From assembly GCA_000091205.1 (NCBI GenBank), contig AP006494.2: a stretch of 64,000 bases of DNA; one strand, written 5' to 3'. The first letter of the stretch is position 1. Each line of letters begins with the position of its first letter. Origin of the DNA: Cyanidioschyzon merolae. Taxonomy: Eukaryota. Of this stretch, positions 2,135 to 26,084 are shown one piece after another. The notes below the pieces were generated by a model. That model saw nothing but the letters and a program-made list of their open reading frames with translations. It was not told the origin of the DNA and searched no databases. The translations under genes were made by a program, and so were the position numbers.

Positions 2135-2330
2135 GTGCAGTAACTGCTTATTCCCTGCTGAAGCGTCCTCGTCGACCTGTTATACGACAGCGCTACCACG
2201 CTGACGTTCACGAGTCGCAGCCGGCAACGCGGGCTCGGGCAAGCCACGCCAGCGGCGGTACCGGCCGCAGCTGCGAATAGGACAGCGCCGGTGCGAGGTG
2301 CTCTACGCAGCTACACCGGAGTTCAGCAGG

Positions 2331-4042: not shown

Positions 4043-5869
4043 CTAGTGCTCGATGCCTGCTGCCCCGGAAGCACGCGTTATCGAAGTTGCACATCGAAAC
4101 CCTGAAAGCATGAAATCCCGAAGCGCGAGAGCGCGTCCCCAGATACTATCTTCCATGTAGATGACGCGCATCAAGGCGTCGATCACGTCTACTGCTGCGT
4201 GATGTACGGGATACTGCAGCGGCTTTGGAATACGAGTGCGCAGCATCCAGAACCGATCCTGTGTAACACTTTTCATAAGACAGCAGGCGCGCAGCCCCTC
4301 AATACCAGCAAATCGATCGGAACCACTATCTTTCGTACCTCCGAAGGGCAGCGACTGGCATAAATAATTCACGCCAAAATCATTCTCATTCACCATTCCG
4401 ACGAGCAGCTTATTTCGAATCATCGCTGCACGCTTGCGATCAGCAGAGAAGACGCTGCTCCCGAGGCCGTACGCTGAACCGTTCACGATCCGAATTGCCT
4501 CCGCATCACCGTCGAAGGGGGTGATGATCATGACAGGACCGAACACTTCGTTTTGCATGATTCGGCTGTGTAGGGGCACGTCAGTCAAGAGCGTTGGCTC
4601 CCAGTACGAGCGCCCTGCGCGCTTGCCGCCACATAGGAGTCGCGCGCCGTCTTTCACTGCGTCGTTGATCAGTGACTCGAGTTCCCGCAGGGAGGCCTCG
4701 CCCATGGTCATTGCACCGAGATCGACGCCGATACGGAGTGACTGCACGCGCACCTGCATCTCGGCAACGAAACGCTCGTAGCTAGGGCGCTGCACCAGGA
4801 TGCGCTCGATCCCGACACAATTCTGGCCGCTGTTTTGAAAAACACCGCGCATCGCAATATCAAGTGCCTGCTCGAGATCCGCGTCATCACAGACAATAAA
4901 AGCGTCCTTACCGCCGAGCTCCAGGACACAGGGTTTCAGTTGCTCGGCTGCTGCCATGGCCACCTGACGCCCGACTCTCGTCGAACCCGTGAAGAATACT
5001 TTGGCAACACCCTTGTCGACAACGAGCGCCTCGCCGGCGCTGGCGCCGCCAGTGACCAACTGCACCAGTTCCGATGGATGCTTGCAAGCACGAAGCACAT
5101 GCCGCACAAGCTCGACATAGTAGACAGAGCACCAGGAGCTATACTCGCTGCTCTTAACGACGATTGCATTGCCCGCAAACAGGGCCGCTAATATCGGATT
5201 CATGAGGTTGTGGAATGGATAGTTCCACGGCGCAATCGCCGCAATGACACCCAGTGGCTCGAACTGCACCCAGGCGCGTTTATGCATGGTGAGCGGTCCG
5301 ACCGAGCGATACTCGGGAGCCAATGCCCGCTCGCCTTCGCGTAAAAGCCAGCGGATCTTCTCGAGCGTCGTGAGTAGCTCGCCCAGATATGCATCGACGA
5401 ACGTTTTCCCGGTTTCCAGCACGCTAGCCTGCAGGATAGACTCGCGATTCGCCAGAATTGCTTTGCGGAGCGCACGTAGAACTCGGCGCCGCTCAGCAAA
5501 CGACGTCTCTCTCCAGAGTTGCTGGGCATCGGACGCCACTTGAACGCGAGCGCGTACATCTGCCGCACTCTGGTCCAGTACCCATCCTAGCAGTCGACCA
5601 GTTGCTGCCGCCGCGCACCGGTGACAGCGATCGGCTTCGGTTTTCTTTCGACAACAGATGGGTTTTCCGGGTTGATCATCGGCGGTAACAGGAATAAGGA
5701 AAAGGCCGTCCTCCGTGAGGTCCGGCAGGCCCAGTGTCACGCACGGGACGTGCTCTCCGCGTTTGCAGAGCCATCTTGTCAGAATCAAACCAAGCAGCGC
5801 AGACACCAGTGCCGCGATAACGCTCCCACTCGTTAAGGGCAGAGCATGTATGGGTTGGTCAAGGTGCAT
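4043..5869 (-). CDS. Aldehyde dehydrogenase with N-terminal transmembrane segment (ALDH22/MSC7-like)
   Basis: Carries the ALDH catalytic motifs LELGGKDA (Glu) and QNSGQNCVGIER (Cys), and FTGSTRVGR. There is an N-terminal hydrophobic helix. The probable ATG is at 5867-5869. Further upstream, the ORF track's 5' extension reads through the 3' end of the adjacent mobile element. Confidence 0.8.
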   Translation of the reverse strand: MHLDQPIHALPLTSGSVIAALVSALLGLILTRWLCKRGEHVPCVTLGLPDLTEDGLFLIPVTADDQPGKPICCRKKTEADRCHRCAAAATGRLLGWVLDQSAADVRARVQVASDAQQLWRETSFAERRRVLRALRKAILANRESILQASVLETGKTFVDAYLGELLTTLEKIRWLLREGERALAPEYRSVGPLTMHKRAWVQFEPLGVIAAIAPWNYPFHNLMNPILAALFAGNAIVVKSSEYSSWCSVYYVELVRHVLRACKHPSELVQLVTGGASAGEALVVDKGVAKVFFTGSTRVGRQVAMAAAEQLKPCVLELGGKDAFIVCDDADLEQALDIAMRGVFQNSGQNCVGIERILVQRPSYERFVAEMQVRVQSLRIGVDLGAMTMGEASLRELESLINDAVKDGARLLCGGKRAGRSYWEPTLLTDVPLHSRIMQNEVFGPVMIITPFDGDAEAIRIVNGSAYGLGSSVFSADRKRAAMIRNKLLVGMVNENDFGVNYLCQSLPFGGTKDSGSDRFAGIEGLRACCLMKSVTQDRFWMLRTRIPKPLQYPVHHAAVDVIDALMRVIYMEDSIWGRALALRDFMLSGFRCATSITRASGAAGIEH

Positions 5870-5880
5870 CACCTTGACAC

Positions 5881-8316
5881 TACAGTAGTGGCGAGAAGCC
5901 CGCCCTAGACAAGGCGCCGCCAACTAACGTGCAGACGCCTCGCAGTTTTTTTGGACCGGCCATCGACTACTGCTTCCACCTTTTTCTCATATGGTTCGAC
6001 TTTAAGTGATTGTCCAACAAAGTTCCCTCTTGTCAGCTCTGGAGGTCTCGTCTCCAGCACCGCACATTTCCTTATATTGATCGCGGCGATAAAGTCTCGA
6101 TTCAAAAACTCCATACGTTTCTTGCCATCAATGGTTGTGCTAACCAATACGAGTAGCCCTCGAACTTTCGCCATCCTTTCCATTTCCTCTTCCGTCAGCG
6201 GTCCGTGCTTTGCTATATCTTCAGGGCTCCTCTAGCGCCTTTCCATCTCGACCCTTTGAAGTGTACACCCCAGTTCATGGTGTGTAAACGTCGTTCGGAA
6301 CTCATCTACAGGTATCGTAACAAAACGCCTTGTGCACTCCTTGTGCACCCTCGTCGTTGGAGCTGGTGTACACCCTTTTTGTGTCTTCCAGCGCCCTGCT
6401 CCGTACGCTACTACGAGCCTTTGAATTTCATTCTCCTGCAAGGCGCTCAACTGATTGCGAAAATTCGCGAACGCGCGCTGCCTCCCACCGTATAGATTCA
6501 TTCGCAGACGAGCCCACCGGGGCTTGGTATACTCCTCCCACAGCGCATCCCGATGCGCAATGCGAAATTCCATGAACTCCCGAAAAGCTTCAAAGTCCGC
6601 TCCGCGGCTCGTCACCTCGCTCAAAGCTTCCAGGTGCTCTTTCACTCCTGCGTTCCACGTCTCGATTTTCTTCCTCGCATTCCTTATACCGGATTCTCGA
6701 TCGTATCACGCTCTCGAGAATCTCAACAGACGCATGTCTTTCTGACGCAAGTTACCGTCAGCGCCATCTTCCGCACGCTTGGGAGCAGCGATGGCTATGA
6801 TATTCGTATTCCCAGGGTCCGCGCCAACGACAAAGTCGTTATCCTGGACTTTCTGCGTCTCAATACCCGCCTCCTTCTTTTCTTCATGCTTCGTCGCGTC
6901 AACCGTAAAGTCGTTATCCTGTACTTCCTGCGTCGCAGCACCAGCCTCCTCCTTTTCTTCATCCTTCGTGACGGGTGCAGCCGGGGACGGAACTGGACGA
7001 TCTGTCTTCAAGCGCCGATAGTGTACACATATATATGGATACTCCATCGGTTTCGATCACACCAGTGAATACCTTTTGTTTGCTGACTTTGAGACGTTTG
7101 AAATTGAAGATGTTCTTCCAATACGTCTCCCGGTTTTCGCCGGTAAACTCCTCCCTGCTAACATTGAACTCTGGACTGATCTCCCTCATGATGCCACGAA
7201 GGATTCTGGAATCGATAGTCACGAAATGTGACGTGATGTTGCACATTGGAACCACGCTGATGCGCTTACCAATTAGGACAGCCTTCCGTCTCTCCCACTC
7301 TCCATTTGTCTCTTCACTCAGCATCACCTCTGCCTTGCACTCGAGTTCTCGGTCCAGAAACACAAAATAGCGCAGGATGAGGCGATAGTATCTTTCCTGA
7401 TCTTTTTCAGCTCTGATATCTTGTCTGTTGGATTCGCCAGCCCCAGTACAGCACGATGTTCTTGTATCACCGCACGGATTACAGAGGCTTCATTCGTGCT
7501 CCTGCGCGACTTCTTCTTGTCGACGGATTCGATCTCATGTTCACGCTTGCGATGCTTCGTGATGCCATTGATAATCGACCATATCCCCTTGCGAGAGATG
7601 CCAGGGTACAGCGCAGACACGGCGCGTATCATGAATCGTTCGAGATTCATTATCGAATGGTTCCTCAGGTTCGTGAGGTACTTCATCGCCCCATAGTCTT
7701 AAATACCCCAGTCACCCTTGATTCGAATACCCTCGAAGCTGTAAAAGGGATGTTTTTCGTGGAGGGCATCTACTAGCTCATTTTTCCTCCGCGCTTCCTC
7801 TGTACCAAGCATCAGGCGACTAAGAAACGTCTTGTCGCAAAACTCGTCTGGAATCTCGACCGTTTCCATGTGCGTCACGTCTTCGTACATCTCCCTCACC
7901 AAATGCATCAGTCCTAGCGACGCATTGACAATACTCTTCGAGTACGAGTCGACACGTGTTTCGATAGCGTCTCGCAACTTTTCCTTGTAGGGATCCTTGA
8001 TATGTCCAAGAAGAAAGGTTTGCACAACCATCTCGTCGGACAGTTGTCTTTCCCGCAGCCTTCGACGTAGGGCCTCCCCCTTTCGGTCCTTCTTCTCTTC
8101 CTTTTCTTCTGGACTCGGCACTGTTTTTTGTTTTTTTCTGGCAGCCGGCGACCCTGGGCCTCCAGGATCGTCAACTTGCATTTTCATGACTTTCCTTTTT
8201 TGTTTTTTGAAAAAGGACGCCCTTTGAACGCTTCTGTTATATACTGCTAATAATCAATTGAATATTTTTACTTGAGGTTTGAAACAAAATGAACTGAAAA
8301 ACTGTACTTGTCTATA
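5881..8316 (-). mobile_element. TnpB/Fanzor-like (OMEGA-type RuvC nuclease) element, copy 1
   Basis: ~2.4 kb unit, >95% identical to copy 3. It encodes the RuvC-I-like DFVVGADPGNTNIIAIAA motif (ORF 6706..7047) and the RuvC-III RDFIAAINIRKC motif (ORF 5905..6183). Boundaries were set by where copies 1, 2 and 3 stop aligning; the 3' end is ...gggcgggcttctcgccactact(g/a)ta. Confidence 0.7.
5905..8187 (-). pseudogene. Fanzor/TnpB-like nuclease reading frame (interrupted)
   Basis: Collinear ORF pieces: 7699..8187 (N-terminus, basic NLS-like KKQKTVPSPEEKEEKK), 7324..7686, 6959..7363, 6706..7047, 6232..6645 and 5905..6183. Copy 1 has its own TAA at 7696-7698, plus the lesions shared with the other copies. 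Confidence 0.6.
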
Positions 8317-10391
8317 AAGTTAAAGAAAATACAACTTTTACATTAGATCTACATGCTAGAGATCAGGATCACGTTCCCCTTCAACGGCGACATGTGCGTC
8401 GTGTCTCATGCCTGCCTGATCTCCCAGGCGTGCTCACCGAGCGCGATGCAAACTAGTCGCAAACTATTTATCAAAGAACAACTATCTTAAAGCCCCACAC
8501 ATTACGTCCGCCTAAGAGGTCTAGTTTTTCCGGAGAAGCTCTGAAAGTGGGTCAACGCGGGGTGTTCGAGCGACGGCGAAGGAAGCCCACGCCAGGGACC
8601 TTTACCGCAACGAACGGAGGGGCAGAGGCAGTAGCAGCAGAGAATGATGACGAGAGTTCTGAGTAGTCATCCGCCCCTCCGGAAACAACGCTGCAGGTTC
8701 GGGCGCAATTCCTGGATCAATCCTCGGACTCGGGCTCAGTATTACCTCCTACCATGGGTGCCAACCTCAACTTTGGAAACAATCTCGGCGGATGCTTTGG
8801 AAGACGGCTGGCAGTATGTTCACTGCCGAAGCTGGAACAAACGACTTGCCCGCCCATGTGTTTTGGGAGCGGATACGTAGCCGCTGAAAGGGTGGTTCAC
8901 AGAGTATCCCCAGTGGTTGAAGGTTGCTCCACGCGTTCGGCAGCGTAACGGTTGCATTCGAATCGACCTTGACTAGAGTACTTCTGATTCTACGCTAGCG
9001 CTGCGCCAAGCACTCAGTGAACGACTGGAATGCACGAGGCGCTTGTGGCATGTGCACTCACACACCCCGTGGAGGGTGCATCTAAATCGACGACGTATCT
9101 CTCGAGTACCGCAGCACTATTCCCATTCCCGTACGCGCTACGACTCGATAGGTTTCGCATCATGGAATATTTGCGGGATAGCCTCGGAATTGAACTACGA
9201 GATATCGAATTACCAGTACAGTAAAGAGGAACTGATACAAATCGAGGACTCTGCAATAGGAAAAGAGACCCAGCGGGATACGGAGAAGGAGACACAAAGG
9301 CCTCATGATCCACCTAGATGCAAAATAACCAGAGAAAGCAGCTCAGGAAAGAGCCCGAAGAAGACGAAGAAGACCAACAAGAAGAAACAGAAGAATAGAA
9401 AGAAGAGCTCCCGAACGAGCCCATCATGAGTGATCCCCTGAAAGAGCACCCCAGCGGGAACTCAAGAAAGCTGCCGCCAAACTCAATCACCTACTCACAG
9501 CGCTGAAGATCCGAAAAGCCATGCATGCAAGCCTTTAGACCAATTGGCACGCGAGTATGTATATGGGAATCAGAAGATTGCCAGAGAACTGGGACTGCTT
9601 GCACCAGAACGCAACAGTTGCAAACCTCGGTACCTGAAACGACGTACCAAAACTCGGAATGATGAATGCCACCGACTCTATAAGATCGTCAACCGCACCG
9701 CCATACGTGCCAACGCTGGAGACAAGGAAGCGAAAGCAGCGCTACCGGCGCTACAGGCGCAACATGAGGAAGCTATCAAAAGAAAGAAGAAACGTTCCAG
9801 AGAAGACAAACGAGAGGATCGAAACCGCAAAATCGCCTCCCTGACGGAATCTATGCTAGAGAGCACCAACGAAGATGAGACCTGACGCTCCATTCGATCG
9901 AGACTGGACGCACCAGAAAAGTGCTTGGGGCTCACACCAATCGTTCATAAGGAATCGCTGAGGACGGAGAGTGCCTCAGTGAATGAGACCGGGATAGACC
10001 ACGGGACAGAGCTGCATGAAGAAGCAACTGGGCACTGCCAAGACCCAGTCCATTGGTACCAATATGCTGCAGAACTACCGCGCCTCGAACATTACCAGCA
10101 CATGAATCGTTCCAGTGCAAACTACAGATATGATGCGAAAAATATCAATCGTGAAATGAGACAGTGTCGAGCGTCAGCGCACGCAGCACTGCCGCATAGA
10201 CCCACAGCGTCTAGCGACGAGCATCGCCCCAGTCTATCGCACGCGCCGCCGCGAAGATCCGGCACCGCAGGCCGCCGACGTGGGCGTGTCTGCGGCATCG
10301 GCTAGCTTCCAAGCGCCTTCAGCAAGCGCGGCCTCTGCTCCTGTTGCCGCTGCCGCTCGTGGTAAACGTACGTTACCGCACTTTGTGGGGC

Positions 10392-12002
10392 ATGTCGCTC
10401 GTTTTTGATGAGTATGGTAGACCGTTTATTATTTTCAAGGATCAAGACAGAAAGGTCCGGACGAAGGGCTTAGAGGCGATTCGGGCGAACGTTGCCGCAG
10501 CGACGGCCGTATCGCGCACCCTGCGAAGCTCGCTGGGTCCGAACGGCATGGATAAGCTGCTGGTTTCCGCCGACGGTGACGTTACCGTTACAAACGACGG
10601 TGCAACAATTCTGAAAGAAATGAACGTGAGCAATGAAGTTGCGAAACTTATGGTTGATCTGGCAAGCGCACAAGACGATGAGATCGGTGACGGCACCACT
10701 GGCGTCGTCGTGCTAGCAGGGGCCCTGCTCGAGCAAGCGCAACAGCTCCTGGACCGAGGCATGCACCCGTCAAGAATAAGTGACGGCTTCGATCGTGCGT
10801 GCGCGATTGCTGTGGATCATCTGGAAAAGATCGCCCAAGTTATGGAGCACACCAAGGCGGACACGTCACAACTGGTGCGGGCGGCAGTAACTGCGCTCAA
10901 CTCCAAGGTCGTCAAGCGTCATAGTGAGGCACTGGCACACGTGTGTGTGAAAGCGGTGCTTGCAGTTGCGGATCTCGAGCGACGTGACGTGAACTTGGAC
11001 TTGATCAAAATCGAAGGCAAAGTGGGCGGGCGCCTCGAGGACACGATTTTTGTCGACGGCATTGTCATCGACAAGGACATGTCGCACCCGCAGATGCCCA
11101 AACAAATAACCGATGCCAAAATCTGCATCCTGACGACTCCCTTTGAACCTCCCAAGCCGAAGACGAAGCACCGCCTCGAGATAAGCAGCGTCGAGCAGTA
11201 TCGCGAGCTGCAGCATGCTGAACAAGAATACTTCACGAACATGGTTAAACGAGTCAAAGACAGCGGTGCAAACCTGGTTATATGTCAGTGGGGTTTCGAC
11301 GATGAAGCCAATTCGCTCTTGTACCAGAATGGTATCTGTGCAGTTCGCTGGGTCGGCGGTGTCGAGATCGAGCTCATCGCGATGGCCACAGGCGGCCGCA
11401 TCATTCCGCGCTTCGAGGAGATCACTCCTGAGAAGCTCGGCCACGCTGCATCCGTCCGTGAGTTACATTTCGGGACGACACATGACAAGGTCATTGTCAT
11501 CGAAGGGTGCCGTAGCACCCGCGCAGTCACCATTTTGGTGCGCGGTGGCAATAAAATGGTGCTCGAGGAGACCAAGCGCAGCCTGCATGATGCGCTCTGC
11601 GTTGTACGCAACCTCATTCGGGATCAGCGGGTTGTGTGCGGCGGTGGTGCGTCTGAGATTGCTGGCGCTATCGCCGTAGCCGAGGCGGCGGATTGTTGCC
11701 TCGGACCCGAGCAGTACGCGATGCGAGCCTTTGCCGAGGCACTGGACTCGATCCCTATTGCCCTCGCTGAGAACAGCGGTCTGTCGCCCATTGAGACTCT
11801 GTCGAGTGTTCGCGCCCGTCAAATCGCTGAGCGCAAACCGTATTACGGCATCGATTGTCTCGGAATCGGCACGATGGATATGCGTGAGCAGAACGTTTAC
11901 GAAACACTGGAGAGCAAGAAGCAACAATTCCAGCTTGCGACGCAGCTATGTAAGATGATTTTGAAAATTGACGATATGCTCCAGCCGAATTCGTTGAGCT
12001 AA
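10392..12002 (+). CDS. CCT5: T-complex protein 1 subunit epsilon (chaperonin CCT5)
   Basis: Collinear with human CCT5 over its full length: [72 protein letters not shown] and ILKIDD. ATG at 10392; stop is TAA. Confidence 0.92.
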
Positions 12003-12228
12003 AGAAATCAATTCCCTCGTCTCTGCGCTCACTGTACATGCGATTTGGCTCATACGCTGAGACCGCTGCACAAAACCCCAAGATCGCTAGCATCCGCGCT
12101 CCCTTGGCCATGCAACGCTTTCGAGCGCTGCAGCGGTGTTGCCAGGTCACGAAGGTCACGTAACGCTTCTGACCGCGTTTTCGTTATGCGCAACCGATCG
12201 TACCTGTTATCTCACCAGATTCGGCAAC

Positions 12229-13632
12229 TTAGTCTTGCTCTGGTGTATCTTCAAGTAGACGTCGAACCTCTTCGGCGAGCATGTCAGCATCTTGGCCGGG
12301 AGGCAGTGTCATGGACTCGGTACCTGCCACGTCGAGAAGATCTTCCACATTAACGTACTGCGAGAGGTCGAAGTCTTCCTCGGGAGCACCCGCTCCTGGA
12401 TGCATGCTTTCTGTTGCCGCCTCTGTATCCATGCCTGGATTGGGCTCGTTCTCATCATCGAGTAAAAGGATGGAGGGGCCTTTCGGACGCGAGTCGGCAA
12501 TGTCCGTCGGCATCGCTGGCGGTCCATCAGGTTGAAGCTGCCGATTGACTGCGGTGTTGCTCGACTCATCCCAAGCCGGTGCTTCGCCGCTCGGCAGGCC
12601 GGTGTCACGCTCCGCGTCGCTTGAGGTGGAGACCACTGCAACCGTCGGGTTCGCGGTGTTCCTCAGGGCCATATTGGCCATCTGGAGCTGCGCCATGAGG
12701 TTGCGAATGAGCTCAATCGATTCGGGGTGAGCGTTCCGTAGCACCAGCGACTGGGACGTGGGCGTCAGCGATTGCGGTTGCTGGCCCTGCAGCGGCGGCG
12801 AGGACGGCGGGTACGACTCCACCACGCTGTCGGTCATGAGCTCCCCGGTATCCCCCTTATACTCAATGCTGCCTATTGAGCGACCCGCTGTGCCTGCCAC
12901 CGGCTCGGTGGGCACGTTCATCAACCGCTTGCGTTTCCGTTCATCCAATTTGATCCCGTGTTGTTGCAGCAGCAACTGGAACGACTGGTAAATGAATTGC
13001 TTCATCTGTTCGACGCTGCTCTCTAGCTGTTGAATGCGTTGCTCACTGTATCGGAGTTTGCGCTCGAGTTCTATTTGGCGATGCCGCGAAGCCAGCAGCT
13101 CCTGCAGAAGCAGCTTCTTGTCGCGGCGGAGCAGCTCTACGTCCGGAGCACTGACGGAGCTATCCGGCCCGAACCCGTAGTTGCCGATCTCAAGTGCTGC
13201 GGTGTGTGGCGGGCTCGACTCTTTCCGCACCAGCGTTCTTGATGGTCGTCGACGCGTCACTTTGGAGAGCCACTCTGGATGATCTCGCACAAAGTACCGG
13301 TTCCCAAACACAAAGTGATCGCTGTCCAGCTTGCGAAAGCCGTATTGGTTCAGTTGTCGAGCGAAACTGGTAAAGTTACTGTGCTTGAAGTAACGCGGCA
13401 GAACCGTCCGGGCGAACTCACTGGGTAAATGAACTTGAAACGAAAGTCCATCGTCCCTCCAGGAGATGAGGTCGTCGGTAGCCGGATCATCGACCATAGC
13501 CCGCAACTTGGTGACAAACGGAGGCATCAGCGCTTTCTCCCACGCCGCCTCGATGGAGGACAACTCACTCGAATCTCGAGGAGGTCGGGAGGCAGCCTCT
13601 CCATGTACACTGTTGGTTACACTCTCTGTCAT
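12229..13632 (-). CDS. Heat shock transcription factor (HSF-type DNA-binding domain plus coiled-coil HR-A/B)
   Basis: The HSF DNA-binding domain is present: FVTKLRAMVDDPATDDLISW, YFKHSNFTSFARQLNQYGFRK. It is followed by a heptad-repeat oligomerisation region (LLRRDKKLLLQELLASRHRQIELERKL). ATG verified at 13630-13632. Confidence 0.85.
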   Translation of the reverse strand: MTESVTNSVHGEAASRPPRDSSELSSIEAAWEKALMPPFVTKLRAMVDDPATDDLISWRDDGLSFQVHLPSEFARTVLPRYFKHSNFTSFARQLNQYGFRKLDSDHFVFGNRYFVRDHPEWLSKVTRRRPSRTLVRKESSPPHTAALEIGNYGFGPDSSVSAPDVELLRRDKKLLLQELLASRHRQIELERKLRYSEQRIQQLESSVEQMKQFIYQSFQLLLQQHGIKLDERKRKRLMNVPTEPVAGTAGRSIGSIEYKGDTGELMTDSVVESYPPSSPPLQGQQPQSLTPTSQSLVLRNAHPESIELIRNLMAQLQMANMALRNTANPTVAVVSTSSDAERDTGLPSGEAPAWDESSNTAVNRQLQPDGPPAMPTDIADSRPKGPSILLLDDENEPNPGMDTEAATESMHPGAGAPEEDFDLSQYVNVEDLLDVAGTESMTLPPGQDADMLAEEVRRLLEDTPEQD

Positions 13633-14048
13633 GGTTTGTGTTCAAGAAAGAAAAGTTTCCCCGGAAACCCAAAACAATCAACGAGTAAGAGGGTATCGAA
13701 TAACGTCAAGATGTTCGCCGCTCGGGAGCTTTCAACTGGATTCTGTTCCGAGCGTGCTGCGTGCAATCCACTGTTTTTTCTCAGGGTAGCGCAAGAGATC
13801 GAAATCACGATGCAAAGTATCTTATGGAGCTGGGATGGGTTGCCTGTAGGATGTATATTCTTTAGTGAAGTGCCCATGGAGGACTGCATTCATCGTTCAG
13901 GTCAGTCATAGCTCAGTACGCATATGGTTGAGGAACACTGAAAGAATGTAGCGTATGCGGTCCGCGTAAAAACTGATATTCCTTAAAGACAGTTTGCGGT
14001 CAGTGGTAGAAAACGAACAGTTCATCATCTTATGGAAAGCAAAAAGCG

Positions 14049-14640
14049 ATGACAGTAGCCACGACGGGCATCCCTGTTTCTCAACAGCTTGTGCGTCTGG
14101 TCATGAAAACACTGAGAGACAGTCGGAAAGACAGAGTCATCGTTCAAGCATGGCCATCTGCCACTGAAATTGCAATGATAGCGTTCCTGGAAGCTCGCGA
14201 TTGGCATAAAGCACAGAAACGTCGGTTTATTTTCTCAGTTGATGGTGCTTGCTTCGGACGAAAAGGTCGGAGCGTATATGGATATTCGCATAGCAGGTAG
14301 CCTATTGAATGTACGATCGAACTCAAAAAGAACGATGACATCATCTGTTCTGGCGGGACGGATTCATCGGCGGCCTCAGTTTCGATCGTAGAGAAGGCTC
14401 ATCGAACAGCACCCATTTCGTCGAACCATTGTCGACGTTTCCCTGGCGTCTGGCGACGTTTTGCTAATGGACAACGCGGTATTTCATCAGTCCCCTTGCG
14501 TTCGCGGTTTTGCCGATGCTTTCGGGGAAGAGAGCTGATTTACATTCGCCCTTATTCCCCGTGGTTAAACCGCATCGAAGGAGCGTTTTCTATCGTAGAA
14601 AGGAATGATCTCTGCATTGGGTGAATCGCTGATGCGTTCA
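14049..14640 (+). pseudogene. Tc1/mariner (IS630-like) DDE transposase remnant
   Basis: Frameshifted pieces carry the DDE_3 catalytic motifs. RRFIFSVDGACF matches the first D (consensus iFsDEs.f). LLMDNAVFHQS matches the second D (consensus DNAp.H). PYSPWLNRIEGAFS matches PYSPDLNPIE..WS. No intact ORF and no clear TIRs were found. Confidence 0.5.
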
Positions 14641-14719
14641 GCACACGGTGACACACCGGGGCACATGTCGTCTCTCTTCCGCAAGTGATTCACCCTGAGG
14701 GAAGCTTCTTACCTGGGGG

Positions 14720-17087
14720 CATGAAGAAGTGTGTTCTATTTCAAAAATAAACAAGCCAATGGAAAGCTATCGACATGCAGGTCGGGGATCCTGGAGGGCC
14801 ATCTTCGCCGGGTTCGGCGAAGAAAACGGAAAACAATACCGATCCCAGGGGAACAAGAGAAGGCGAAGAAGCACAAGCAGGAAGCCAGGCGTCAAAAGCA
14901 ACTAGAAAGACGACAACACCGCGAGATTTGAGTGAAAGCTTGTCTTCTGAGACATACCAAGGATTCGTACAAGCAAAATTCACAAGAGGCTGTCAGAATC
15001 CTTGTCGCGTCGTACTCCAGGAGGGAACATTAGGCTTCTTTAGGACTCATGCATTTGCTGAAGGAGATGTACGACAACGTGCCGCATATGGAAACAGTCG
15101 ATATTCCAGAGGAATTTTTCAACAAGACCTTTATTCGTCACCTGACGCTTGGCACAGGGGAAGCGCCGAGGAGAAATGAACTGGTGCATGCCCTCCATGA
15201 AAATCATTCCGAGTACCGCTTCAACGGTGTTCGATGCAAGGGTGACTAGGGTATGTACACCTACGAAGCGATGAAGTACCTCACGAATCTGAAGAACAGT
15301 ACGACCATGAACCTCCAACGTTTCATGATACGCGCCATCTCTGCGCTGTACCAGGGCCTCTCTCGCAGAGGGATACGGGCCATCATCGACGGCATCACGA
15401 ACGATAGTACGAGTGAACAGGAGACCGAATTCGTCAAAGAGAAGACATCACGCAGGGGAAAGAATGAAGCTTTTGTGATCGGTGCAGCTATTCAAGAGCA
15501 TCGTGAAGTCTTGGGGCTTGTCAACCCAGCAGAAATGGTATCAGATGTGAAAAAAGATGAGGAATGATGCTCTCCCCTCAACCTGTGCTATTTCGTATTC
15601 CTGAACCGAGAACTCGAACGCAAGGCGGAGACGGAGCAAAGTGAAAAAAAAGAAGAGACAGACAGACAGACGGACAGACGGAAGGCTGTGCTGCTGGAGA
15701 AGCGCTTCAACGTCGATCCGTTGTCCAACATCAAGTCATATTTTGTGACAATCGACTCCAAAATCCTTTACGGCATCATGAGGAAGATCAGTCCAGAGTT
15801 CAATGTTAGCAGGGAGGAGTTTACCGGCGAAAACCGGGAGACGTATTGGAAGAACATCTTCAATTTCAAACGTCTCAAAGTCAGCAAACAAAAGGTATTC
15901 ACTGGTGTGATCGAAACCGATGGAGTATCCATATATATGTGTACACTATCGGCGCTTGAAGACAGATCGTCCAGTTCCGTCCCCGGCTGCACCCGTCACG
16001 AAGGATGAAGAAAAGGAGGAGGCTGGTGCTGCGACGCAGGAAGTACAGGATAACGACTTTACGGTTGACGCGACGAAGCATGAAGAAAACAAAGGAGCGG
16101 ATCCTGCGATGCAGAAAGTCCAGGATAACGACTTTGTCGTTGGCGCGGACCCTGGGAATACGAATATCATAGCCATCGCTGCTCCCAAGCGTGCGGAAGA
16201 TGGCGCTGACGGTAACTTGCGTCAGAAAGACATGCGTCTGTTGAGATTCTCGAGAGCGTGATACGATCGAGAATCCGGTATAATGAATGCGAGGAAGAAA
16301 ATCGAGACGTGGAACGCAGGAGTGAAAGAGCACCTGGAAGCTTTGAGCGAGGTGACGAGCCGCGGAGCGGACTTTGAAGCTTTTCGGGAGTTCATGGAAT
16401 TTCGCATTGCGCATCGGGATGCGCTGTGGGAGGAGCATACCAAGCCCCGGTGGGCTCGTCTGCGAATGAATCTATACGGTGGGAGGCAGCGCGCGTTCGC
16501 GAATTTTCGCAATCAGTTGAGCGCCTTGCAGGAGAATGAAATTCAGAGGCTCGTAGTAGCGTACGGAGCAGGGCGCTGGAAGACACAAAAAGGGTGTACA
16601 CCAGCTCCAACGACGAGGGTGCACAAGGAGTGCACAAGGCGTTTTGTTACGATACCTGTAGATGAGTTCCGAACGACGTTTACACACCATGAACTGGGGT
16701 GTACACTTCAAAGGGTCGAGATGGAAAGGCGCTAGAGGAGCCCTGAAGATATAGCAAAGCACGGACCGCAGACGGAAGAGGAAATGGAAAGGATGGCGAA
16801 AGTTCGAGGGCTACTCGCATTGGTTAGCACAACCATTGATGGCAAGAAACGTATGGAGTTTTTGAATCGAGACTTTATCGCCGCGATCAATATAAGGAAA
16901 TGTGCGGTGCTGGAGACGAGACCTCCAGAGCTGACAAGAGGGAACTTTGTTGGACAATCACTTAAAGTCGAACCATATGAGAAAAAGGTGGAAGCAGTAG
17001 TCGATGGCCGGTCCAAAAAAACTGCGAGGCGTCTGCACGTTAGTTGGCGACGCCTTGTATAGGGCGGGCTTCTCGCCACTACTATAC
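14720..17087 (+). mobile_element. TnpB/Fanzor-like element, copy 2 (chimeric: divergent 5' third)
   Basis: From ~15785 to 17087 it is near-identical to copies 1 and 3. From ~14720 to 15785 it is only ~70-75% identical at the protein level (MHLLKEMYDNVPHMETVDIPEEFF vs MHLVREMYEDVTHMETVEIPDEF). A (GACA)n microsatellite sits at 15655-15690, just upstream of the ~15785 junction. The 3' end is ...ttctcgccactactata. Confidence 0.65.
14775..17062 (+). pseudogene. Fanzor/TnpB-like nuclease reading frame (interrupted)
   Basis: ORF pieces 14775..15179, 15049..15249, 15253..15567, 15688..16008, 15920..16261 (GADPGNTNIIAIAA), 16283..16735 and 16784..17062 (RDFIAAINI). Stops are in-frame at 15565-15567, 16259-16261 and 16733-16735. 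Confidence 0.6.
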
Positions 17088-17157
17088 ACCGCTGCCGTCG
17101 TTCGACTTAGAACGGCTTTTGGTATTGGCGGTGGTACAGCGGCCTTGCCTCGTGTTT

Positions 17158-18084
17158 ATGGCAACGAGCGTTTCGGAAAGCGAGTTGCAACTGCTTCCGC
17201 ACTGGCTTTCGTGTATCCATGCGAAGCGGTCAACCTGGACGTGTTCCCAAGACTATGCGCGGTTCGTTCGGCTCTTGCGGGATATCTCCTTGGAGCTCTA
17301 TGTGGCGCGCAACCAGCCCAACGTGCTCGTTCAACTCGCACGTTACGGTTCAGCGTGCACACGGGTTGTGAACGATCTTATCACGGTCTGGAGTGTTCCG
17401 CTTCTACACGAGAGCGTTTCCAGGGCGGTGATTCGGTTTCTAGTGGTTTGTCAGACCGGCAGCGGACCAGAGCAAGTCAAGAGGCGGGCTCTGGCCTGGG
17501 CGCGACACCTGCTGCGACTCGCTGTCTCTCCAGCGATCAACGCAACCTTTATCGATGAGGGCTTAGGTTCAGCTCGAGTTGTGGATGAACTTTGCACTGT
17601 TATCGGGGCCATGGGTTGCCAGGCGCGCATACCAGCTGAACTTGGCGTTCTGATTCCATCGCTCATTCAGGGTGCATGCTGTGCAGACCTTGTTGCTGCT
17701 CTCGTGCCGACGATTGCGGCAATGCTCGAGTCGCAAGCGACCAGTCCCGCATGGCGTCATGCCGTTCGCTGCGCATTCACCTGGGAAGATGCGGAAACGA
17801 AGTACTGTGCTTTTCGCGACGGGTTGTCGGCGACTCTGCAAAATATGCTCCTCGCGGCAGACGCGCAGCTCTTGTGCCAGTGCCTCCAGTCCCCGGAGGC
17901 ACTACTCAAAACACCGCTGGATCATCTCAGCGAGCGATTCGATCACATTCGCCTCTTCTTGCGTTTACAACATGGAGCGGATCCGGATACCAAGGCATCT
18001 GCTGACGACGTCAATACAGTCTCGACGCAGAACCAGAGCGGACCGGATCTCGCAACGACGCCTCGAGCAGGAACGATGACCTGA
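17158..18084 (+). CDS. Hypothetical protein (no recognised domain)
   Basis: Long ORF with GC-rich codon usage. The first ATG lies downstream of the element end. The ORF track's 5' extension (17044-17157) runs through the element's 3' terminus and is not host sequence. Confidence 0.3.
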   Translation: MATSVSESELQLLPHWLSCIHAKRSTWTCSQDYARFVRLLRDISLELYVARNQPNVLVQLARYGSACTRVVNDLITVWSVPLLHESVSRAVIRFLVVCQTGSGPEQVKRRALAWARHLLRLAVSPAINATFIDEGLGSARVVDELCTVIGAMGCQARIPAELGVLIPSLIQGACCADLVAALVPTIAAMLESQATSPAWRHAVRCAFTWEDAETKYCAFRDGLSATLQNMLLAADAQLLCQCLQSPEALLKTPLDHLSERFDHIRLFLRLQHGADPDTKASADDVNTVSTQNQSGPDLATTPRAGTMT

Positions 18085-18594
18085 GGCGTATTCGCATTTT
18101 GGTGCTGGTGATGCGGTGCAGCAACGTGATCCATCGGTTGCACGAAGGAGCACTCGCTGGTATTTTCGACGAAATGCGACGAATTTGCGGTCAGCGCGCA
18201 GGCATCTCGGGTCGAGCACCCAGTCTGATGTGCGAGCGATCGCAGCCTCCGAGCCATTCCTGCACTGAACCAGATCCAATTTACATTTTGCAAATCTCCG
18301 AGGGATTCGAACGGCCTTGGCGGGCGGGCCCGGAATGCTTCATCGTGGGACTGCGGCAGAGTGCAGGTGTTCCACACGCCGGACTGTTCACGTCGCCCAT
18401 GGATGCCCGCCAGGAGGCATGGGCGAGCAGCTCGTCTCTAACTGCTGGCGCTCCTGCATGCGGACGCTATACGCACCCACACATACAGAGGGAAAGAGAG
18501 AGACTGCCACCGGTTTCGTTTCGTATGAAGCTACGCCCATTCATGAAACTGATAGGCGCGCGAACGGGTTCGAATACGTGGCGCGCGGGATGCG

Positions 18595-19026
18595 TCATTC
18601 TACTGGATTCGCGATATACGGTTTCATCAGTTTCATGAAGTGGATATCGAATAGCTTGCATCGAATAGGCATGTCCTGTACATAAAAAGGGTTTTTTAAC
18701 GCATAGTCGGCGTAGAGGAGATGAAGTCGCCGCAAAATTCCCAGTAAGATTTCATCCGTGACTTCCGGGGTTGCAATCGCCACGAACTGTATACCCGTTA
18801 GCGGCTGATAAAGCCGCAGACGAAACGTTTTCGCTTCTAACGATGTTAGTCCAATATCGTCTAAAATATCAACTGGTGAAACCTGTCGTGAGATCTGCTG
18901 AACGCTGTGCAGTGTCGAGGCCAGTCGAAGGCACTCGTTCAAAGGATGCACCTGTGAGCCTTGAAACTGGGCGCTGTAGATTAAGCCTCCGGACCTGTTT
19001 ATGATAAACACGGTGTAAATCGGCAT
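18595..19026 (-). CDS. TRAPPC1: TRAPP complex subunit 1 (Bet5/sybindin-like longin fold)
   Basis: 143 aa. MPIYTVFIINRSGGLIY ... FRLRLYQPLTGIQFVAIATPE ... LYADYALKNPFY fits the Bet5/TRAPPC1 family in both length and motif order. ATG verified. Confidence 0.75.
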   Translation of the reverse strand: MPIYTVFIINRSGGLIYSAQFQGSQVHPLNECLRLASTLHSVQQISRQVSPVDILDDIGLTSLEAKTFRLRLYQPLTGIQFVAIATPEVTDEILLGILRRLHLLYADYALKNPFYVQDMPIRCKLFDIHFMKLMKPYIANPVE

Positions 19027-20362
19027 ATCAGTATCCAGTCGGCACAGTGACTGTGCCTCTTCACCAGTGACGGGCTCTTGACGAAAACCGAAGCACCAGG
19101 TACAGTGCTCGACCGCGCCGCTGCAGCACGCAGCGGGCCAACACTGTCAGAGAGTTTCGACGTTGACGTTCGCGCCGAGGCTCGCCAGCGCGCATGATGC
19201 ACGCTCGTCATCTGTTCATTCGTGTTTTGTATGTTTATTCATGAACATATGAAGGCAGTATCTGGTCCAGACGCGCATGGCCTACCCATGTCCGATCGAG
19301 GTCGCGAAACCTTGTTCAATGAATGAGATCGAGTGGACGAAGCCTTTAAAGCCCCAGATGCGTCGATGCTGACAGCTAGCTGGGCAGAGGCCGTCGTTCA
19401 CCTACAGATGCTTCTCCGCTCGATAAGCGAGCGATCAGTCCTCCCGTCAGACTCAGAAAATAGAGGCAGCCACTGTTGGGGTACAACGCGAACCGTGAGC
19501 TCCGTTCCGCAACGCTGGATGCACTGCCGCCGCTGACGCCATGCGGCAGGAGAACGGCTCTTCGTTGCGTTTAGAGGCGGCGCCTGAAGAGTTCGCGGTA
19601 TCTGCGTAGCGCACCGATCAAGCAGGGATCCCTTGCGTAGATCCACAGAATACAGATGTTTGATGGTGTCGGAACGGTGGATCTTAGCCAGTGCCGCCCG
19701 GAGATGTGAAGAAGGTACCTGCTCGGAGAGCGCTTCCACGATGTACTGCAGTCAGATGGATGCCTGGAATGCAAGGTTCGGAAAAATGATCGGTTTTATG
19801 AACGCAACAAAGACTCGCCAATATGAAAAATGCAATTGACTACGAATTTTCCGGTGATTTCGTGAACGCGTCCGTGTGGAATACATCCTATTCATGCTCG
19901 AGTTTGGGATGCAAACAGCAGCGGTTGGTGCATATCCAGAACGTCCACCAAGGGAATCCATCTGATCTTCCTCACTTACAGGATATACATACGGCCAGCG
20001 ATGAGGTCCATCGGATTCATACGTCTGGCTGCTTTCATCTATGCGGTGTAGACACGCTGGACAATGAAGCTTCTACTCCAAGGTGTCGCTTATGAGCCCT
20101 AGAGCCACTGCAACGAAGCTGCTCTTGTCCGGACTTGCAACCCAGCGCAACCCAATGGTCAGCGTCCACTAGAATCCGACACAGCAGCCCGTTACCCGCA
20201 GACATCAGAATGGAAGCGTCTCGCTGCAGGACGATGGGCATGCGCCGCAGTCTTGCCAATGAGCCGGATCAATCGCCGCATCCGTAGAACAAAGAACAGA
20301 GACCAACTACCAACTAGCAACGAGATAACGATTTCTTTCGCCATCTACGATAAACGTTAAAA

Positions 20363-20850
20363 TGAGGAAAAGTTTCCTCGTTGGCGAAAGTTTACCTTAC
20401 AGGCGGAAGGTCCCGCGAGCTGAACGAGTGTGCCCGGCGAGTGCTTCATGCGACTCTACAGAGGCAGATGCCAAAGTAAGATATGAGCAGCAGCTCATCG
20501 TAACGCAATGCTTTCTGGGAATAGGAGCAGGACGCTGCGTCTGGGCGTCGCCCTTGTCGCAGCGGACTCCTCGTATATCGCTTCGCAGTGCCGCAGACAG
20601 TACGTCTGTCTGCGCAGCTCGCAGGCTCCCAGAATGATCATGAATCCAGACCCGGTATCGGGTGAAGCATTCCTCGAGCCGAGGCCCTCAGTGGTATAGC
20701 AAAGCCGTTCGAGCTCCATGAACTATCTGCTCCAGCGGTTCAAGCGCAAAGGTGGATGATTAGGGTAGGTACGAGGCACACACGATAGGACGTATGAAAC
20801 GACCAAAATATCCGAGAAGAAGTATAGGTAATGTAAATTGGAGGTAGGTG
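20363..20850 (+). repeat. Dispersed ~470-bp repeat family R2, copy A
   Basis: Shares the core (t)taccttacaggcggaaggtcccgcgagc and the 3' portion ...cctcgagccgaggccctcagtggtatagc...gataggacgtatgaaacgacc with the copies at 26085-26552 (-), 28140-28386 and 32288-32715. Confidence 0.6.
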
Positions 20851-21071
20851 CTTCATCACGGACGCTTTCCAGAAAGCCGTTATCCTTTCCGAATTCTAGG
20901 ATCCATGGTCAATGGAAACGTCTTGTCAATAAAAAAATCGCGCTCAATGGGCGCACCCCGGAGATCGGGCAGTCAACTGACGCGATGCGCGTGCCGTTGT
21001 TGAAGGGAAACTCAATTGGGATCAGTAACGTGTTGTTCAGCTGTGAACGTCGGATATCGGTCCAGGCCATA

Positions 21072-23497
21072 GCAAAGTACAGTCTTTCAGTTCGTTTTTG
21101 TTTCAAACTTCAAACAAGTCCAGTCAAGTGTTTTTTTGCAGTATATAACAGCAGGGTTCAAAGAGCGTTCTTGTTCAAAAAAAAAGAAAGCTATCAAAAT
21201 GCAAGTCCACGATGCTGGAGGCTCAGTGTCGCCGGCTGCTAGAAGAAAACAAAAAACAGTGCCGAGTCCAGAAGAAAATGAAGAGAAGGAGGACTGAAAG
21301 GGGAGGCTCTACGTCGAAGGCGGCAAGAAAGACAACTGTACGACGAGATGGTGGTGAAAGCTGGTCTTCCTAAACATATCAAGAATCCGTACAGGGAAAA
21401 GTTGCGAGACGCTATCGAAACACGTGTCGACTCGTACTCGAAGAGTATTGTCAATGCGTCGCTAGGACTGATGCATTTGGTGAGGGAGATGTACGAAGAC
21501 GTGACGCACATGGAAACGGTCGAGATTCCAGACGAGTTTTTCGACAAGACGTTTCTTAGTCGCCTGATGCTTGGTACAGAGGAAGCGCGGAGGGAAAATG
21601 AGCTAGTAGATGCCCTCCACGAAAAACATCCCTTTTACAGCTTCGAGGGTATTCGAATCAAGGGTGACTGGGGTATTTACAGCTATGGGGCGATGAAGTA
21701 CCTCACGAACCTGAGGAACCATTCGATAATGAATCTCGAACGATTCATGATACGCGCCGTGTCTGCGCTGTACCCTGGCATCTCTCGCAAGGGGATATGG
21801 TCGATTATCAATGGCATCACGAAGCATCGCAAGCGTGAACATGAGATCGAATCCGTCGACAAGAAGAAGTCGCGCAGGAGCACGAATGAAGCCTCTGTAA
21901 TCCGTGCGGTTATACAAGAACATCGTGCTGTACTGGGGCTGGCGAATCCAACAGACATGATATCAGAGCTGAAAAAGATCAGGAAAGATACTATCGCCTC
22001 ATCCTGCGCTATTTTGTGTTTCTGGACCGAGAACTCGAGTGCAAGGCAGAGGTGATGCTGAGTGAAGAGACAAATGGAGAGTGGGAGAGACGGAAGGCTG
22101 TCCTAATTGGTAAGCGCATCAGCGTGGTTCCAATGTGCAACATCACGTCACATTTCGTGACTATCGATTCCAGAATCCTTCGTGGCATCATGAGGGAGAT
22201 CAGTCCAGAGTTCAATGTTAGCAGGGAGGAGTTTACCGGCGAAAATCGGGAGACGTATTGGAAGAACATCTTCAATTTCAAACGTCTCAAAGTCAGCAAA
22301 CAAAAGGTATTCACTGGTGTGATCGAAACCGATGGAGTATCCATATATATGTGTACACTATCGGCGCTTGAAGACAGATCGTCCAGTTCCGTCCCCGGCT
22401 GCACCCGTCACGAAGGATGAAGAAAAGGAGGAGGCTGGTGCTGCGACGCAGGAAGTACAGGATAACGACTTTACGGTTGACGCGACGAAGCATGAAGAAA
22501 AGAAGGAGGCGGGTATTGAGACGCAGAAAGTCCAGGATAACGACTTTGTCGTTGGCGCGGACCCTGGGAATACGAATATCATAGCCATCGCTGCTCCCAA
22601 GCGTGCGGAAGATGGCGCTGACGGTAACTTGCGTCAGAAAGACATGCGTCTGTTGAGATTCTCGAGAGCGTGATACGATCGAGAATCCGGTATAATGAGT
22701 GCGAGGAAGAAAATCGAGACGTGGAACGCAGGAGTGAAAGAGCACCTGGAAGCTTTGAGCGAGGTGACGAGCCGCGGAGCGGACTTTGAAGCTTTTCGAA
22801 AATTCATGAAAGTTCGCATTGCGCATTGGGATGCGCTGTGGGAGGAGTATACCAAGCCCCGGTGGGCTCGTCTGCGAATGAACCTATACGGTGGGAGGCA
22901 GCGCGCGTTCGCGAATTTTCGCAATCAGTTGAGCGCCTTGCAGGAGAATGAAATTCAGAGGCTCGTAGTAGCGTACGGAGCAGGGCGCTGGAAGACACAA
23001 AAAGGGTGTATACCAGCTCCAACGACGAGGGTGCACAAGGAGTGCACAAGGCGTTTTGTTACGATACCTGTAGATGAGTTCCGAACGACGTTTACACACC
23101 ATGAACTGGGGTGTACACTTCAAAGGGTCGAGATGGAAAGGCGCTAGAGGAGCCCTGAAGATATAGCAAAGTACAGACCGCTGACGGAAGAGGAAATGGA
23201 AAGGATGGCGAAAGTTCGAGGGCTACTCGTATTGGTTAGCACAAGCATTGATGGCAAGAAACGTATGGAGTTTTTGAATCGAGACTTTATCGCCGCGATC
23301 AATATAAGGAAATGTGCGGTGCTGGAGACGAGACCTCCAGAGCTGACAAGAGGGAACTTTGTTGGACAATCACTTAAAGTCGAACCATATGAGAAAAAGG
23401 TGGAAGCAGTAGTCGATGGCCGGTCCAAAAAACTGCGAGGCGTTTGGACAACAGATGGAGACGTTTCGCCTGGGGCGCGTTCGCCGCCTCTACTGTA
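21072..23497 (+). mobile_element. TnpB/Fanzor-like element, copy 3
   Basis: The 5' end aligns with copy 1 from ...at|agcaaagtacag, and includes a TATA-like gcagtatataacag at 21141-21154. Up to 23449 it is near-identical to copies 1 and 2. The last ~45 bp is a divergent (~65% identity) but homologous version of the 3' terminus, ending ...cgccgcctctactgta. Confidence 0.7.
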
Positions 23498-23507
23498 CCG
23501 CTGGTGA
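21202..23507 (+). pseudogene. Fanzor/TnpB-like nuclease reading frame (interrupted; ~760 codons)
   Basis: Pieces: 21202.. (MQVHDAGG..., then a copy-specific 1-nt deletion and TGA), 21348..22055, 22016..22420, 22332..22673 (RuvC-I-like DFVVGADPGNTNIIAIAA at 22542-22595), 22695..23147 (Cys/His-rich RLVVAYGAGRW...GC...C...HHELGC), and 23196..23507 (RuvC-III RDFIAAINI at 23280-23306). Confidence 0.65.
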
Positions 23508-23710
23508 CACCAACGTTTTTCTTTTGAAAGACGTTCGTTGTCAGCGGTGTGCTCGCTGCGCTTTCGCAGCCGATTTTGTGACCCGAACGGCTTTATCGCC
23601 ACTGGGGTGCGGCACCGTGCCCGGTAGCGCTTGTGGGCACTGTTCGAAGCTGTCCGGTGTGTCCAGTGCGGCTTTTATTCTATGAGAATACGCGTACGCA
23701 TAGGAGAGTG

Positions 23711-25546: not shown

Positions 25547-26084
25547 TCGCTGCAGCGCATGAATCCACAGTCGAGGTCTCGTGGCTCGCGGAGCGTGCCC
25601 TCGAAGCCGCGCACTGACGGCCGGGTCTGTCCCGTGACGCCCATCTGCGAGCGACGCAACAAGCGGACACATGTCGACGCGCAATAGCCGCAGATGCACC
25701 TGGCAATGATCCGGACACCGAATATCGCGCCCAAGCTGAACGCATCACCTGAAGCGAACTTGTTCGATGCGAAAGATGTAGCAGCCAGTTGTATGCCGGT
25801 GCTTGCGCATCCAACCATCCAGCCATCCAACCATCCAGCACAGATGCCCATTGCTGCGCTGCGATCGGCAATGCTAGGCGAAAAGCGCGTGCTCCGCCGA
25901 GCCTCCACGTGCGATGGCGCCTGCTGGTGGGATCTCTGGAGCAGCGCCCTGCTGCGGTGCCCTGTCGTTGCCTGCTGGTTTTTTCAGATGACAAAACGTT
26001 TCCATTGACCATGGATCCCTGAAGTCGGAATGGATAATGGCTTTCGTGAAAGCGTCCATGATGAAGCGCCTTCCCTCAAGTTCC

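Follow-up and report, generated by a model that had tools for sequence, protein, structure and literature searches.

A 64,000-nucleotide stretch of chromosome 12 of the red alga Cyanidioschyzon merolae 10D (contig AP006494.2; hereafter the window) holds three repeats which are copies of CMe-1A, the element of a Fanzor1 family already published in 2013. All three are pseudogenes, and they are very probably old, 5'-truncated, inactivated insertions that became near-identical secondarily, through gene conversion. Fanzor1 proteins, the eukaryotic homologues of TnpB, are omega-RNA-guided DNA endonucleases with a single split RuvC domain. The initial annotation of the window had proposed three near-identical copies of a TnpB/Fanzor-like RuvC nuclease element, recently mobilised and perhaps still intact somewhere; its reading of the motifs alone named the family correctly, and its inferences 'recent' and 'possibly active' fail.

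Self-comparison of the window reveals three copies of a repeat of ~2.4-2.6 kb, extending over 5881-8447 (copy A, minus strand), 14727-17097 (copy B, plus strand) and 20937-23533 (copy C, plus strand). Set against the CMe-1A consensus, they read as follows:

5858-8445, minus strand: copy A, CMe-1A Fanzor1 unit, pseudogene; consensus 648-3134 plus a private terminal hairpin, 86.5% identity.
14727-17133, plus strand: copy B, CMe-1A Fanzor1 unit, pseudogene; consensus 869-3145 plus a terminal hairpin, 86.2% identity.
20939-23549, plus strand: copy C, CMe-1A Fanzor1 unit, pseudogene; consensus 648-3169 plus 16 nt of terminal hairpin, 85.3% identity.

The range first assigned to them, 5881-23497, took in all three copies and was slightly short, as B and C run on to 17133 and 23549. 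Copy A is without the 5' 647 nt of the consensus. The open reading frame (ORF) remnants are:

Copy A, minus strand: ATG at 8187 to TAG at 5907-5905.
Copy B, plus strand: ATG at 14775, TAG at 17060-17062.
Copy C, plus strand: ATG at 21199; terminal stop codon mutated to TGG.

How do these copies compare with what is known of the family? Bao and Jurka (2013, Mob DNA 4:12; PMC3627910) described one Fanzor1 family in C. merolae, with a protein, CMe-1, of 734 amino acids (aa) encoded in one exon and an element, CMe-1A, with a 3,169-bp consensus and ~150 copies, each ~80% identical to that consensus. They found no terminal inverted repeats (TIRs) and left the target-site duplications undetermined. 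The consensus DNA and the CMe-1 protein were taken from the supplements of the same paper. The window copies come from the same organism and the same element and match this description: they are 85-87% identical to the consensus in DNA and, translated in the consensus register, 77-79% identical to CMe-1. They differ from the consensus in being 5'-truncated or rearranged and in having one extra 25-aa repeat. Comparison of one consensus end with the reverse complement of the other scores within the shuffled range, and no TIRs of CMe-1A were found in this way, in agreement with PMC3627910. The novelty implied by the initial annotation thus falls away: both the literature and Repbase have included the C. 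merolae Fanzor1 since 2013, and the window copies, which cannot make a nuclease, give it little further significance. Among the homologues found in a large protein database there is no annotated C. merolae protein of the CMe-1 family.

Is the encoded protein really a Fanzor1? The repeats and motifs on which that proposal was built are real and lie far above chance. Six-frame translation finds DFVVGADPGNTNIIAIAA, then VDEFRTTFTHHELGC, then RDFIAAINI in all three copies:

Copy A, minus strand: GADPG at 6825-6811, VDEFRT at 6309-6292, RDFIAAINI at 6099-6073.
Copy B, plus strand: GADPG at 16142-16156, VDEFRT at 16658-16675, RDFIAAINI at 16868-16894.
Copy C, plus strand: GADPG at 22554-22568, VDEFRT at 23070-23087, RDFIAAINI at 23280-23306.

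The basic, NLS-like N-terminal stretch that had been quoted beside them, KKQKTVPSPEEKEEKKDRK, occurs in that form in copy A only (8136-8122, RKKQK...KKDRK); copy C has a mutated version with an in-frame TGA, and the consensus reads GKKRK... A Pfam scan of the repaired window protein and of relatives gave no TnpB or Fanzor model above threshold, the only reports being DUF460 (a domain of unknown function, DUF) at E 0.18 and a sub-threshold PF07282 in the relative P0031, and phmmer against the PDB, with single proteins and with a shallow 11-sequence profile, gave no relevant match. A search of the large protein database yielded 31 close relatives, all metagenomic; one of them is P0001, whose identity to the repaired window protein is 72%. 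The search gave a single distant relative as well, P0031, which aligns at 32% identity across 82% of the protein (E 8e-60). P0031 in turn has 383 relatives, including proteins of Tetrabaena socialis, and one of these relatives carries PF07282 in its precomputed annotation; P0031 itself matches this Cas12f1-like TNB domain weakly, at E 2.4e-4 and 21.7 bits, below the cutoff of 26.3. Through P0031 (E 8e-60) the window protein is tied to a family profile of 106 sequences, 10 of them from the C. merolae lineage. Run against the 177,635 distinct sequences of the PDB, this profile matched exactly two of them, the Fanzor1 proteins of Parasitella parasitica (PpFz, 9CF0, E 3.4e-15) and Spizellomyces punctatus (SpuFz, 8GKH, E 1e-11). 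The profile check that the initial annotation had suggested therefore comes out empty in Pfam with a single sequence, whereas the family profile finds Fanzor1.

The fold tells the same story. An AlphaFold2 model of P0001 (predicted local distance difference test score, pLDDT, 82.8; predicted template modelling score, pTM, 0.80) has the expected order of strands and helices around the catalytic residues. In a Foldseek search of the PDB its top seven matches are SpuFz, PpFz and the Guillardia theta Fanzor1, GtFz, with E-values of 4e-16 to 1e-13 and template modelling (TM) scores to the target of 0.49-0.73 (0.71-0.73 to SpuFz); Cas12 proteins come next, at E 7e-3 or worse. The structural comparison with SpuFz1 that had been proposed as a check was made with a 72%-identical relative, and its fold matches the solved Fanzor1 structures. 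Against the assignment it counts that the window protein and P0001, taken singly, match no TnpB model in Pfam and no Fanzor chain in the PDB, that homology to Fanzor1 becomes visible only through the family profile and the fold, and that the fold was predicted for a metagenomic relative and not for the window sequence itself. A coincidence of motifs in a repeat that encodes something other than a TnpB/Fanzor nuclease would fit the silence of the single sequences, but is hardly conceivable beside a profile that picks only two Fanzor1 proteins out of the whole PDB, seven leading fold matches that are all Fanzor1, and two relatives that reach PF07282, one by its score and one by annotation. PF26935 (DUF8286) appears, weakly, in the precomputed annotation of many family members and was not reported by the Pfam scan made here; proteins of Fanzor1 type may be what this DUF was defined from.

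The active site can be read by alignment. On this basis GADPG is RuvC-I, the Glu of VDEFRT is the catalytic glutamate and RDF(N/I)AAINI is RuvC-III. The corresponding residues, D431, E603 and D672 in CMe-1 numbering (D484, E656 and D725 in P0001), are near-invariant in the 106-sequence alignment, and in the profile alignments DPG, DEFRT and NRD fall on the same residues of PpFz and SpuFz. The D...E...D columns thus line up with solved structures, as the initial annotation had expected, and all three window copies keep the three codons. AYGAG stands at the canonical RuvC-II position, the conserved acidic residue being found in DEFRT instead; this is the rearranged RuvC-II glutamate described for Fanzors (PMC10530073). 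Profile matches, fold matches and this rearranged active site are together the reason why we hold the Fanzor1 assignment, and with it the proposed TnpB/Fanzor-like nuclease, to be right. An intact CMe-1A would have encoded a Fanzor1 of ~734 aa with its catalytic residues at the D of GADPG, the alternative E of VDEFRT and the D of NRDFNAAINI, and, by homology to SpuFz1 and PpFz, it would have shared their nuclease mechanism.

The segment between RuvC-I and RuvC-III had been described as holding a Cys/His-rich putative zinc finger, and here the description does not survive. The cysteine of its 'GC' is a mutation specific to the window (the consensus reads KGT), and its 'KEC' sits in the helix before the DEFRT strand. 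The consensus and intact relatives read THHELGC...EKC...RGLLALVSTT, and in them RGLLALVSTT replaces the second Cys pair (GLLxC...C) of SpuFz and PpFz; this pair is absent from the whole C. merolae lineage. By sequence, then, a canonical CxxC...CxxC zinc finger between RuvC-II and RuvC-III is absent in the lineage.

Where does the family stand among known systems? SpuFz1 (8GKH), PpFz (9CF0) and the G. theta Fanzor1 (9CER) have the same overall fold and a comparable size, and the RuvC-I DPG, DE(F/Y)xTS and NRD motifs of SpuFz and PpFz align with those of the C. merolae family. Sequence identity to these three is only 12-15%, and the C. merolae copies dealt with here are dead. A further difference is the zinc finger: SpuFz and PpFz have CxxC...CxxxxC, where the C. 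merolae lineage reads HH..C...C and lacks the second Cys pair. The TnpB of IS200/IS605 (ISDra2) and Cas12f belong to the same single split RuvC lineage and take their guide RNA from the right end of the element, as CMe-1A presumably did; CMe-1 is about twice their size, has its RuvC-II glutamate rearranged (PMC10530073), lives in a eukaryotic host and has no TnpA. The nearest relatives outside the Cyanidiales are the green-algal Fanzor1 proteins of the P0031 group (T. socialis and metagenomic), which share the motifs and DUF8286; they form a different lineage from CMe-1, with many uninterrupted ORFs of 600-650 aa.

The size of ~760 aa first given for the protein fits, because the 734-aa consensus is lengthened in the window copies by one extra 25-aa repeat. 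Self-BLAST shows this repeat as a 75-bp in-frame tandem duplication, and on alignment with the consensus each of the three copies has an insertion of +75 nt there:

6820-6969, minus strand: duplication in copy A, two 25-aa units just upstream of RuvC-I.
15998-16147, plus strand: duplication in copy B.
22410-22559, plus strand: duplication in copy C.

The 25-aa unit before RuvC-I is present once in the published consensus, twice in the window copies and about four times in P0001, where the equivalent region (residues 386-469) is disordered in the AlphaFold2 model (pLDDT <50).

Could any of the three copies still make this protein? The initial annotation had left room for an intact one, and all three in the window are broken. 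Common to all are a frame-shifting +4 insertion behind consensus position 2057, a TGA at codon 468 (R in the consensus and relatives), a TAG at codon 626 (Q in the consensus) and the substitutions Y470D and N674I, the latter in the Asn of RDxNAAxNI; both residues are near-invariant in the family. A and C alone share a -1 deletion at consensus position 1685. Private to A is a TAA at codon 163; private to B are a +1 insertion, a TAG at codon 160 and a TGA at codon 266; private to C are a TGA that replaces codon 35, another two -1 deletions and the loss of the stop codon. In window coordinates the lesions are:

Copy A, minus strand: -1 at ~7407, +4 at ~7036, TAA within 7707-7691, TGA at 6708-6706, TAG at 6234-6232.
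Copy B, plus strand: +1 at ~14818, +4 at ~15931, TAG at codon 160, TGA at codon 266, TGA at 16259-16261, TAG at 16733-16735.
Copy C, plus strand, insertions and deletions (indels): -1 at ~21301, -1 at ~21972, +4 at ~22343, -1 at ~23432.
Copy C, plus strand, stops: TGA at codon 35, TGA at 22671-22673, TAG at 23145-23147; terminal stop changed to TGG.

Each copy thus has 2-5 frameshifting indels, some of them compensating pairs, and 3-5 in-frame stops relative to the consensus frame, and because frameshifts and stops occur in every one the window copies cannot make the nuclease. Introns or an alternative genetic code were considered and rejected, since relatives and the consensus read through at these places (R, Q, in-frame) and the host genes of the window are ordinary uninterrupted ORFs identical to annotated proteins. 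An intact copy was also sought among the 31 close homologues and 80 metagenomic loci, and none was found; almost all of the metagenomic loci are broken too. The best copy, P0001, has lost the initiator Met and the N-terminus of the consensus (its called ORF begins at a valine, consensus residue ~23) and is also without the last ~33 codons.

If the copies are this decayed, why are they so alike? The identity of >95% over ~2 kb in the initial annotation holds for the pair A-C (98% over 2,136 nt ungapped, 94% over 2,568 nt gapped) and not for B, which is 87% identical to both overall. The likeness is also unevenly spread. Between A and C it is 98-100% across 21455-23395 (C coordinates; core ~99%), whereas the first ~300 nt are only 84-89% identical and the last ~100 nt only 65%. 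The 5' half of B is 72-82% identical to A and C, and its 3' part (~1.2 kb, from ~22190 in C coordinates) is 94-100%, mostly 99-100%, identical to them; each half is still 12-18% from the consensus. The flanks of the three copies are unrelated, and their 5' truncation points and terminal hairpins differ. This mosaic of identity, together with the differing flanks, truncations and hairpins, argues for gene conversion and not for fresh insertions of one master element. Ectopic conversion among dead copies lying within 17 kb of each other would have homogenised the cores while termini and flanks stayed different, and we propose that it is also why the same disabling lesions are found in all three copies. 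Weighing against gene conversion is that the case for it consists of the identity pattern alone and that other histories can be put forward, in which B arose by recombination or the copies were duplicated and their ends then eroded.

The position of copy A adds a further clue. It ends beside the gene of a betaine aldehyde dehydrogenase (ALDH), and this junction is nearly unchanged in contigs of three independent environmental data sets (L083-L085: ENA ERZ27247235, Logan SRR29616394 and JGI 3300052694). All three contigs carry the orthologous ALDH gene and break 70-176 nt upstream of its ATG, within the 3' end of CMe-1A; natural populations therefore have the same insertion, and it breaks their assemblies.

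Two other histories have to be weighed here. One holds that the copies are independent recent insertions of an already dead, non-autonomous subfamily, mobilised in trans by an active element elsewhere. The shared lesions and the shared 75-bp duplication do imply a common dead ancestral sequence, and each copy has its own flanks beside a different host gene. Fresh insertions should however be uniform, and here the ends of A and C (the 5' ~300 nt and last ~100 nt) are 65-89% identical against 99% in the core, the 5' half of B is ~25% diverged from both, and truncation points and hairpins differ from copy to copy, all of which makes this history improbable. The other, recent mobilisation of a Fanzor that may still be active, with a live RNA-guided endonuclease system at this locus, was the reading of the initial annotation and fares worse. 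It could appeal to the 98% identity of A and C over 2.1 kb, to the retained D/E/D codons and to the multicopy nature of the family, but every copy has at least five ORF-disrupting lesions, three of them common to all, the near-invariant RuvC-III Asn and Y470 are gone throughout, the termini are far less alike than the cores and the junction of copy A with ALDH is fixed in several environmental samples; we consider it highly unlikely, and the lesions already rule it out for A, B and C. With gene conversion among old insertions very probably the right account, the case would document the homogenisation of dead transposon copies in a 16-Mb genome.

A separate lead concerns the 3' end of the element. 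In an alignment of ~50 distinct CMe-1A 3' ends, position 3145 or 3169 is the last that BLAST matches to the consensus, and most ends, B and C included, run ~16-20 nt beyond the published consensus and thereby complete a long CACC...GGTG hairpin. Folded as sense-strand RNA, the final ~135-140 nt form two parts, Domain 1, which takes in the last ~20 codons together with the stop codon, and then the terminal hairpin:

5881-5974, minus strand: 3' Domain 1 of copy A, in which the closing stem AGCAGUAGU...ACUACUGU encloses an inner hairpin, GGCGUC/GACGCC.
16993-17086, plus strand: 3' Domain 1 of copy B.
23405-23497, plus strand: 3' Domain 1 of copy C.
17087-17133, plus strand: terminal hairpin of copy B, closed by CACC...GGUG, beyond the consensus homology end at 3145.
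23498-23549, plus strand: terminal hairpin of copy C, ending 16 nt past consensus position 3169.
5880-5858, minus strand: terminal hairpin of copy A, unrelated, 9 bp.

The window copies have sense-strand folding z-scores of -2.2 to -4.5, and two metagenomic copies reach about -5.9. In 48 of 49 copies the sense strand folds more stably than the antisense strand, by a mean of 11.8 kcal/mol to which a G+U-rich composition contributes, and the same is true of Domain 1 alone in 47 of 49. For the 48 nt that follow the anchor, the mean z over 31 distinct copies is -2.34, against -0.2 in controls 300 nt downstream (Mann-Whitney p = 8e-7). Two hairpin variants that lie at least five substitutions apart, CGUUUUUC-UUUU-GAAAGGCG and CGUUCGA-CUU-UCGAACG, both pair, in shifted registers. 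Several variants of the terminal hairpin exist, with pairing kept.

What might this structure be for? The omega-RNA of characterised Fanzors such as SpuFz and PpFz comes from the right end of the transposon and may overlap the stop codon (PMC10432273). A structured 3' region lies in the same place in CMe-1A, and this location makes the last ~140 nt, which reach beyond the published consensus, a candidate omega-RNA scaffold; the guide RNA scaffold would presumably have been transcribed from there. Against a conserved RNA it speaks that RNAalifold on 39 3' ends gives a weak consensus (-7 kcal/mol) with no useful covariation, and an Rfam scan of the whole window returned no match.

The right ends of the three copies also have a peculiar position with respect to the host genes:

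5858-5881: right end of copy A, 12 nt upstream of the ATG at 5869 of betaine aldehyde dehydrogenase BAM80857, co-oriented.
17133: right end of copy B, 25 nt upstream of the ATG at 17158 of CML279C, co-oriented.
23549: right end of copy C, 162 nt upstream of the ATG at 23711 of CML282C, co-oriented.

The ALDH ATG falls in the loop of the terminal hairpin of copy A. Is this arrangement general? When ATG-initiated ORFs of at least 120 aa were counted in unique right-end flanks from the window and the metagenomic loci (L003-L082), a co-oriented ORF began within 600 nt in 27 of 35 (binomial p = 0.002 against 0.5), while in the remaining 8 the ORF is convergent. The co-oriented ATG lies at a median of 77 nt from the last conserved base, and the downstream ORFs are unrelated to one another. 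No mention of such a bias was found in the literature searched. It is possible, and we put it forward tentatively, that the CMe-1A right end, which probably encodes the omega-RNA, is non-randomly placed or retained tens of nt upstream of co-oriented start codons, either as the 3' end is kept as promoter or 5' leader of the next host gene or as the element targets the 5' ends of genes. The 12, 25 and 162 nt that separate the window copies from annotated start codons and the unrelated genes behind the co-oriented flanks speak for it. On the other side, the metagenomic genes are ORF proxies only, the loci are partly non-independent, the null expectation is probably above 0.5, as it would be were intergenic regions with promoters longer than those between two 3' ends, and the argument is one of position. 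Were it true by targeting, the guide would match the leader of an essential gene, a drive- or addiction-like arrangement; were it true by retention, decayed 3' ends would have been taken over as promoters or 5' leaders, in a genome that is very compact. For Fanzor biology, the candidate omega-RNA region past the consensus and the right ends that abut co-oriented host start codons are both modest leads.

Other pieces of the element lie in the same window. The first 635 bp of CMe-1A are 95% identical to a separate element of ~70 copies, TE-N2_CMe, and the published consensus has this module adjoining the Fanzor unit without a gap, in direct orientation (PMC3627910). The pieces found are:

20285-20928, minus strand: TE-N2_CMe module, inverted, abutting the 5' end of copy C; consensus 4-642, 82% identity.
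25987-27078, plus strand: CMe-1A 5' fragment; consensus 2-1084, 81% identity; TE-N2 module, leader and first ~60 codons.
32215-32826, minus strand: solo TE-N2_CMe copy; consensus 1-636.
28176-28384, minus strand: TE-N2_CMe fragment; consensus 84-288.

The module is thus absent from A and B, inverted beside C and direct only in the fragment at 25987-27078. Its head-to-head placement with copy C is unlike the published consensus, and copy A also begins at ~648. Because the module is inverted at C and A starts at ~648, TE-N2 and the Fanzor unit may be two elements that can separate and that join at a favoured point. Similarity between the 3' end of TE-N2 and that of the Fanzor unit was sought, and none was found. 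An 87-nt direct repeat, 86% identical between its two copies (25859-25945 and 27082-27168), flanks the fragment at 25987-27078.

The initial annotation had placed this DNA in a eukaryote, and exact protein matches confirm this and identify the window as part of C. merolae 10D chromosome 12. The gene names CML279C and CML282C give the chromosome. Three window ORFs are identical to annotated proteins of the strain:

BAM80858: CCT5, exact protein match of a window ORF.
BAM80859: HSF-like protein, exact protein match of a window ORF.
BAM80867: agmatine deiminase, exact protein match of a window ORF.

Further along the window, two copies of an unrelated direct repeat of 387 bp stand 6.3 kb apart at 97% identity (48916-49302 and 55172-55558), and an inverted pair is 65% identical (40837-41401 and 55745-56316).

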